From Candidatus Ryanbacteria bacterium RIFCSPLOWO2_12_FULL_44_26 (GTDB lineage Bacteria; Patescibacteriota; Minisyncoccia; Ryanbacterales; HO2-45-13), in NCBI GenBank assembly GCA_001821765.1, contig MHOA01000001.1, forward strand, positions 88,294 to 152,293: DNA of 64,000 bases, written 5' to 3'. The position numbers were made by a program, and so were the translations under genes. The notes under the pieces were generated by a model. It was not told the origin of the DNA. It ran no database searches and saw nothing but the letters and a program-made list of their open reading frames with translations. Shown piece by piece: positions 14,953 through 15,003 of this stretch (positions are counted from its first letter, which is position 1; every line of letters starts with the position of its first letter).

Positions 14953-15003
14953 AATAATAATAATAATAATAATAATAATAATAATAATAATAATAATAAT
15001 AAT
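14953..15003. repeat. (AAT)17 microsatellite in divergent intergenic region
   Basis: 51 nt perfect trinucleotide repeat between the MMPL gene (minus) and the acyltransferase gene (plus). Confidence 0.95.

Follow-up and report, generated by a model that had tools for sequence, protein, structure and literature searches.

The gap between an MMPL/RND-type exporter gene and a PlsC-like acyltransferase gene of Candidatus Ryanbacteria contains a perfect (AAT)17 microsatellite, which is the only long microsatellite in the 64-kb stretch of DNA that was analyzed in this study (hereafter the window). Our tentative reading, held with a little less than even confidence, is that this slippage-prone, A+T-only tract makes up the upstream half of the acyltransferase gene's promoter, which would be leaderless and of the sigma-70 type, and that a change in unit number would at most alter the output of this promoter in a graded manner, with no direct effect on the core promoter of the MMPL gene. 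The anatomy of the tract suggests a mild tuning knob or a neutral slippage product, not an on/off switch of two operons. We infer the acyltransferase transcription start, the promoter role of the tract and any effect on expression from the DNA sequence. The tract and the two genes that flank it are as follows.

14953..15003, no strand: perfect (AAT)17 microsatellite, read directly from the sequence; the A+T-only run continues to 15007
12579..14843, minus strand: MMPL/RND-type exporter, 754 aa (PF03176 MMPL, 2e-11)
15012..15695, plus strand: PlsC-like acyltransferase, 227 aa, with the HX4D motif NHKTHFD (PF01553 Acyltransferase, 1.3e-14)

Direct reading of the sequence and TRF (14953-15004, period 3, 17.3 copies, 100% matches) confirmed what an earlier note on this DNA had described, namely 17 perfect AAT units at these coordinates in the 168-nt gap between the start of the MMPL gene (14843, minus) and the ATG of the acyltransferase gene (15012, plus). 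The identities that it had assigned to both flanking genes agreed with the domain matches given above, and its placement of the tract within promoter DNA agreed with the promoters that are predicted below. From base composition, about 9e-23 such tracts would be expected by chance. Among the other trinucleotide repeats of the window, the longest reaches 4 units, and homopolymers extend to at most 9 bases. At 55 nt, the A+T-only run (14953-15007) is likewise the longest of its kind in the window, ahead of one of 22 nt. In addition, the tract is the least stable 50-bp duplex in the 64 kb, with a value of -40.8 kcal/mol vs. a mean of -66.4 and a standard deviation of 5.0, i.e., 5 standard deviations away. 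Single-strand fold prediction of the tract gave no hairpin or slipped structure (MFE 0). A known structured RNA element was ruled out by an Rfam search of 14600-15300, which returned no match at E ≤ 1. An assembly artifact was ruled out as well, because the tract is present in at least nine assemblies from several different pipelines.

The source population of the tract is Candidatus Ryanbacteria (CPR/Parcubacteria) of aquifer metagenomes. Candidatus Ryanbacteria MAGs encode proteins identical to the flanking ones, such as OGZ42104 and OGZ42105, and over up to 14 kb the window is matched with 99.9–100% identity by contigs of NCBI MAGs, JGI metagenomes and ENA assemblies. An exact search of the metagenome_contigs collection with the right flank gave no match, and that collection evidently does not include this organism. 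Seventeen units were read directly in 7 distinct assemblies, some of which may share read sets (ERZ4903125, GCA_001819715.1, GCA_001819895.1, ERZ28563588 and JGI 3300025323, 3300009285 and 3300002105). Moreover, five JGI contigs encode the exact product of the following ORF, which requires 17 units.

14914..15018, minus strand: 34-aa ORF spanning the tract, MPSTN(I)17EKRSYNNYIPLI, annotated as a gene by JGI

Sixteen units were found in the 905-nt scaffold ERZ28563683, which has both flanks intact and shows no other difference, and 18 units follow TTC at the very start of the 73.6-kb MEGAHIT contig ERZ27254737 k141_258686. The flanks of the 16-, 17- and 18-unit assemblies are 99.9–100% identical to the window. 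The variation in copy number that the earlier note had considered is therefore seen among otherwise identical assemblies, with 16 (n = 1), 17 (n = 7) and 18 (n = 1) units, but the minor alleles come from weak assembly contexts, a short scaffold and a contig end, where low coverage or PCR stutter is possible. Of the 24 longest contigs with the acyltransferase gene, two (ERZ27254737 k141_258686 and a similar one) start at the left edge of the tract; thus, the repeat breaks some assemblies, through either length heterogeneity or low coverage. Slippage in the population is plausible but modest, and the 17-unit allele is clearly dominant. Such dominance differs from the broad spread of lengths that is typical of contingency loci. 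Two other contigs deviated from the window in their sequence. ERZ27254811 k141_38206 has 2 mismatches in 1755 nt, which marks a slightly different strain in the ERZ27254811 sample series; all other contigs were identical. In ERZ4902915 NODE_1574 (coverage 3.4), nt 1-841 do not match the window and are joined to it inside the acyltransferase gene at 15281, so that this contig is a low-coverage chimera or else represents a rearranged variant.

The promoter role proposed for the tract builds on a pattern shared by other genes of the window. Even weak matches to a Shine-Dalgarno site were found for only 7 of the 49 long ORFs. In 9 out of 50 other genes, where 0.86 would be expected, exactly 6 nt separate the end of a TAnnnT hexamer from the start codon (Poisson P = 3e-7). 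This is an enrichment of about tenfold in the window, and no other offset exceeded 5. Examples of this arrangement are found at 21622, 30968, 37348, 39798, 54238 and 61384. Judged from sequence, the pattern of TAnnnT, 6 nt and start codon is probably the signature of leaderless transcripts. The acyltransferase gene shows the same features of a leaderless sigma-70-type promoter, i.e., TAATAT, 6 nt and ATG, with no Shine-Dalgarno site. The hexamer is placed as follows.

15000..15005, plus strand: predicted -10 element TAATAT of a leaderless acyltransferase promoter; its first 4 bases are the end of the repeat, and it is followed by tagtag and the ATG at 15012

The ATG at 15012 is the sole plausible start of the acyltransferase, since two in-frame TAG codons directly upstream block any longer ORF and the only alternative before the HX4D motif, a TTG at codon 25, would cost the protein its N-terminal hydrophobic segment. 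Given that this geometry is shared with other genes of the window, the tract most likely covers positions -59 to -9 of the acyltransferase promoter relative to the predicted transcription start and supplies part of the -10 element. The -35 position falls inside the repeat and has only 2 of 6 consensus bases; the -35 regions of the other leaderless-type promoters in the window are likewise weak and TTT.AAA-like. The leaderless reading is weakened by this low -35 match and by the fact that a TAnnnT hexamer would occur at the correct distance in A+T-only sequence by chance in roughly 1 of 8 cases. A search of a paper library found no paper that connects CPR bacteria with leaderless expression. 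The leaderless signature and the paucity of Shine-Dalgarno sites matter for how gene starts are called and promoters are predicted in such genomes.

If the acyltransferase promoter is leaderless, the first transcribed base would be the A of the ATG at 15012, and the -10 element would be built from the last repeat unit and its flank. The tract would then occupy the spacer, the -35 position and the UP-element region (-59 to -9), and would serve there as an A+T-rich upstream element that melts easily and offers only a weak -35. Because of the 3-bp periodicity, gain or loss of units would leave the distance between -10 and start, as well as the local sequence of -35 and spacer, unchanged. What would change is the position of the left flank, which one unit would shift by 3 bp, a helical rotation of ~103 degrees. 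The left flank would carry the MMPL promoter and a second promoter on the plus strand.

14885..14913, minus strand: best candidate MMPL promoter, TTGACA (14913-14908), 17-nt spacer, TACTTT (14890-14885), found by consensus match only, with a predicted transcription start near 14878
14907..14933, plus strand: alternative promoter, TTGTCA, 15-nt spacer, TATAAT (14928-14933), read directly, to the left of the tract

Variation between 16 and 18 units would thus give a graded, rheostat-like change in the output of the acyltransferase promoter, or no change. By inference, polymerases on the two divergent promoters would be ~24 bp apart at 17 units. This separation raises the speculative possibility that the tract also serves as a spacer and as a sink for negative supercoils between the divergent promoters.

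The alternative that survives best, which we nevertheless consider somewhat unlikely, is that the tract is a neutral slippage product. In this view, A+T-rich intergenic DNA would have expanded where two gene blocks of different composition, probably acquired separately, meet; the tract would persist because it is harmless, and its length would carry no regulatory meaning. This alternative draws on the setting of the tract. The acyltransferase gene is followed by three further genes of low G+C content.

15770-16474, plus strand: SAM methyltransferase
16512-17144, plus strand: FeeM/LuxI/OlsB-like GNAT N-acyltransferase, related also to exosortase-associated N-acyltransferases
17171-18829, plus strand: 7TM histidine kinase

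The G+C content is 47.5% for the MMPL gene and 32–36% for the block from acyltransferase to kinase, with a window mean of 41.6%. A compositional junction within 12579-18829 is therefore located at the tract. The two sides also differ in their initiation signals. The MMPL gene is among the few genes of the window with a clear, strong Shine-Dalgarno site (AAAGGAGAAG; GGAG at 14854-14851, 7 nt before the ATG), whereas the acyltransferase, methyltransferase, GNAT and kinase genes have none. These contrasts in G+C content and Shine-Dalgarno sites suggest that two separately acquired gene blocks meet at the tract. Family-level matches make it plausible that the block from acyltransferase to kinase has a role in lipid or N-acyl-amino-acid modification. 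The earlier note had joined the two transcription units under lipid modification and export, a functional link that turned out to be weak. MMPL homologs from other, unrelated phyla (37–53% identity) have no acyltransferase, methyltransferase or GNAT neighbors and show no synteny, and no relative of the acyltransferase with more than 27% identity was found among 5.8 billion proteins. Together with the G+C contrast, these results argue that such a unit is not a conserved module. PDB sequence searches did not yield a useful name for either the acyltransferase or the GNAT protein. The arrangement at 16512-18829, in which an N-acyltransferase of the FeeM/LuxI/exosortase-associated type lies directly upstream of a histidine kinase with a 7TM receptor, is an observation in its own right; going by sequence, the pair may form a module of this CPR genome for an acyl-amino-acid signal or lipid.

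Neutrality is also consistent with the dominance of the 17-unit allele in all long assemblies, with the lack of a repeat in the regions upstream of the distant MMPL homologs and with the fact that no copy-number-sensitive promoter geometry was found. However, perfect repeats of 17 units are extremely rare here, the next trinucleotide repeat having only 4 units, and the complete absence of interrupting substitutions suggests recent or ongoing slippage, or selection. Moreover, the tract abuts the predicted -10 element and the start codon of a gene, where neutral sequence is rare.

A second alternative, which appears quite unlikely, is that the tract is transcribed, either from TTGTCA-15-TATAAT or from hexamers within the tract, as an unstructured, A/U-rich (AAU)n leader that supports Shine-Dalgarno-independent translation of the acyltransferase, in which case the number of units would set the length of the leader. 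By sequence, TTGTCA-15-TATAAT, which has a perfect -10 hexamer and shares its -35 palindrome with the candidate MMPL promoter, could be the real acyltransferase promoter. The promoter scan also found TTGTTA-17-AATAAT and TTTTCA-17-AATAAT, and -10-like hexamers occur within the tract on both strands (AATAAT on the plus strand and TATTAT on the minus strand). The leader region 14940-15071 has an MFE of -8.1 kcal/mol, weaker than that of 199 of 200 shuffled sequences (z = +2.2), and the tract itself has an MFE of 0; the leader is thus predicted to be unstructured. In addition, most genes of the window lack a Shine-Dalgarno site, which means that initiation at unstructured A/U-rich regions must be possible. 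On the other hand, the 15-nt spacer of the alternative promoter is short, the leader offers no hairpin of the kind that an hmw-type 5'-UTR mechanism needs, and the exact geometry of TAnnnT, 6 nt and ATG favors a leaderless start.

The earlier note had proposed a classical phase-variable switch, in which the unit number alters the -35/-10 spacing or the phasing of an UP element and thereby turns both divergent units on or off. We regard this as very unlikely. The position of the tract between divergent genes and the occurrence of 16-, 17- and 18-unit alleles accord with it, as does the relative rotation of the flanks by ~103 degrees per unit. The proposed spacing change, however, is contradicted by the size of the tract, which at 51 bp is three times as long as a spacer of 16-18 bp; the repeat does not lie between -35 and -10 in any candidate promoter. 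A unit change cannot alter the spacing, because either the tract has both hexamers on the same side or an element within it is regenerated every 3 bp. The sole scenario of the spacing type would take the TTTTCA that borders the tract on the left as the -35 of TAATAT, and it reaches a 16-nt spacing only at 7 units, ten below the number observed. Nor do the data indicate a common switch for both transcription units, because the candidate MMPL promoter lies wholly to the left of the tract, 40 bp away. The dominance of a single allele also speaks against switching.

The last alternative is scarcely credible: the tract would encode the poly-isoleucine core of a 34-aa hydrophobic peptide (minus strand, 14914-15018), acting as a small membrane protein or as an upstream ORF of the MMPL gene whose unit number sets the helix length, and although the ORF exists and was annotated on five JGI contigs, it is most likely spurious, lacking both a Shine-Dalgarno site and a TAnnnT hexamer 6 nt upstream, with a start that overlaps the acyltransferase start on the opposite strand, no poly-Ile peptide of 33, 34 or 35 aa in a collection of 15 billion proteins and no terminator or antiterminator structure ahead of the MMPL gene, so that both a poly-Ile peptide and an attenuator leader were judged unlikely.

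As a promoter-proximal simple repeat, the tract belongs to an already known kind. By analogy, its nearest mechanistic counterpart appears to be the T-tract rheostat of Helicobacter pylori sabA. The length of the sabA T-tract shifts the axial alignment between UP-like DNA and the core promoter, which results in graded output (PMC4081817). Similar to the sabA tract, the AAT tract is an A/T-only intergenic repeat directly upstream of a core promoter, which is predicted in our case, and similar to H. pylori, the organism that carries it is thought to have few classical regulators. Different from the sabA tract, it measures 51 bp, changes in steps of 3 bp and extends into the -10 element of a promoter predicted to be leaderless. 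Its length variation, known here from assembled sequences, has so far been plus or minus one unit around a dominant allele.

The (GAA)n repeats of Mycoplasma gallisepticum vlhA, a classical example with a trinucleotide unit, lie ~40 nt upstream of the transcription start, have conserved flanks and belong to a large gene family, and vlhA expression is linked to exactly 12 units, possibly via a dedicated factor (PMC6258824). Similar to vlhA, the AAT tract is a trinucleotide repeat that lies upstream of the start of a membrane-associated gene and outside the -35/-10 spacer, in a genome-reduced, host-dependent bacterium. Different from vlhA, its unit is AAT, it abuts the -10 element and it occurs at a single locus: only one such tract is present in the 64-kb window, where no such gene family was found. 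The heptamer repeats of Haemophilus influenzae hmw1A/hmw2A are located in the 5'-UTR, where they form a long RNA hairpin that is cleaved by RNase III (PMC12721329). The AAT tract resembles them as an intergenic repeat before a start codon whose unit number could tune expression gradually, and it would be transcribed, as they are, if the left-hand promoter were used. An (AAU)17 leader, however, has no predicted structure, and the long hairpin that characterizes the hmw repeats is absent.

In H. influenzae hifA/hifB, with (TA)n, and in Neisseria porA and opc, with homopolymers, the repeats lie between -35 and -10. These repeats are short, and one unit moves the spacer into or out of the optimum of 16-18 bp. 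The AAT tract is similar to them in that it is found in the control region of genes for surface or envelope functions, and the region of hifA/hifB is also shared by divergent genes. Different from these repeats, a 51-bp AAT tract cannot move the spacer. PhasomeIt, a standard screen for phase variation, excludes trinucleotide repeats since they do not cause frameshifts (PMC6321876). Tracts like (AAT)17 are thus missed by design.

CPR bacteria have not been cultured; their genomes are very small and encode few regulators, and a life attached to host cells is assumed for them. If the repeat tunes a membrane-lipid gene, it would provide a parallel in CPR bacteria to mycoplasmas and Helicobacter; if the tract is neutral, it is simply an unusually long bacterial microsatellite. 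A search of a paper library found no report of repeat-driven phase variation in CPR bacteria. We give only a slim chance to the broader idea, drawn by analogy with mycoplasma surface variation, that this would be the first simple-repeat contingency locus in CPR bacteria, at which random changes in AAT units reset the rotational and linear coupling between the leaderless acyltransferase promoter and the back-to-back MMPL promoter and so tune, in a heritable and reversible way, an envelope-lipid or N-acyl-amino-acid module of a putative episymbiont.

Two other features of the window were observed away from the tract. All three perfect DnaA boxes of the window (TTATCCACA) and a copy with one mismatch are clustered in 137 bp (47942-48078), with a class II aminoacyl-tRNA synthetase gene (48171-49649, minus) on one side and rsmH/mraW (46534-47433, minus) on the other. 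This cluster has no dnaA gene next to it, and the cumulative GC skew and the gene orientation switch at ~37-39 kb, separate from it. From its sequence, 47942-48078 could be an origin-like or DnaA-regulated site. Finally, at 42293-42340 (minus strand), TTGATG-17-TTCAAT lies upstream of tRNA-Glu and stops only 4 nt short of the mature 5' end, so that the primary transcript may start at or next to the mature end.
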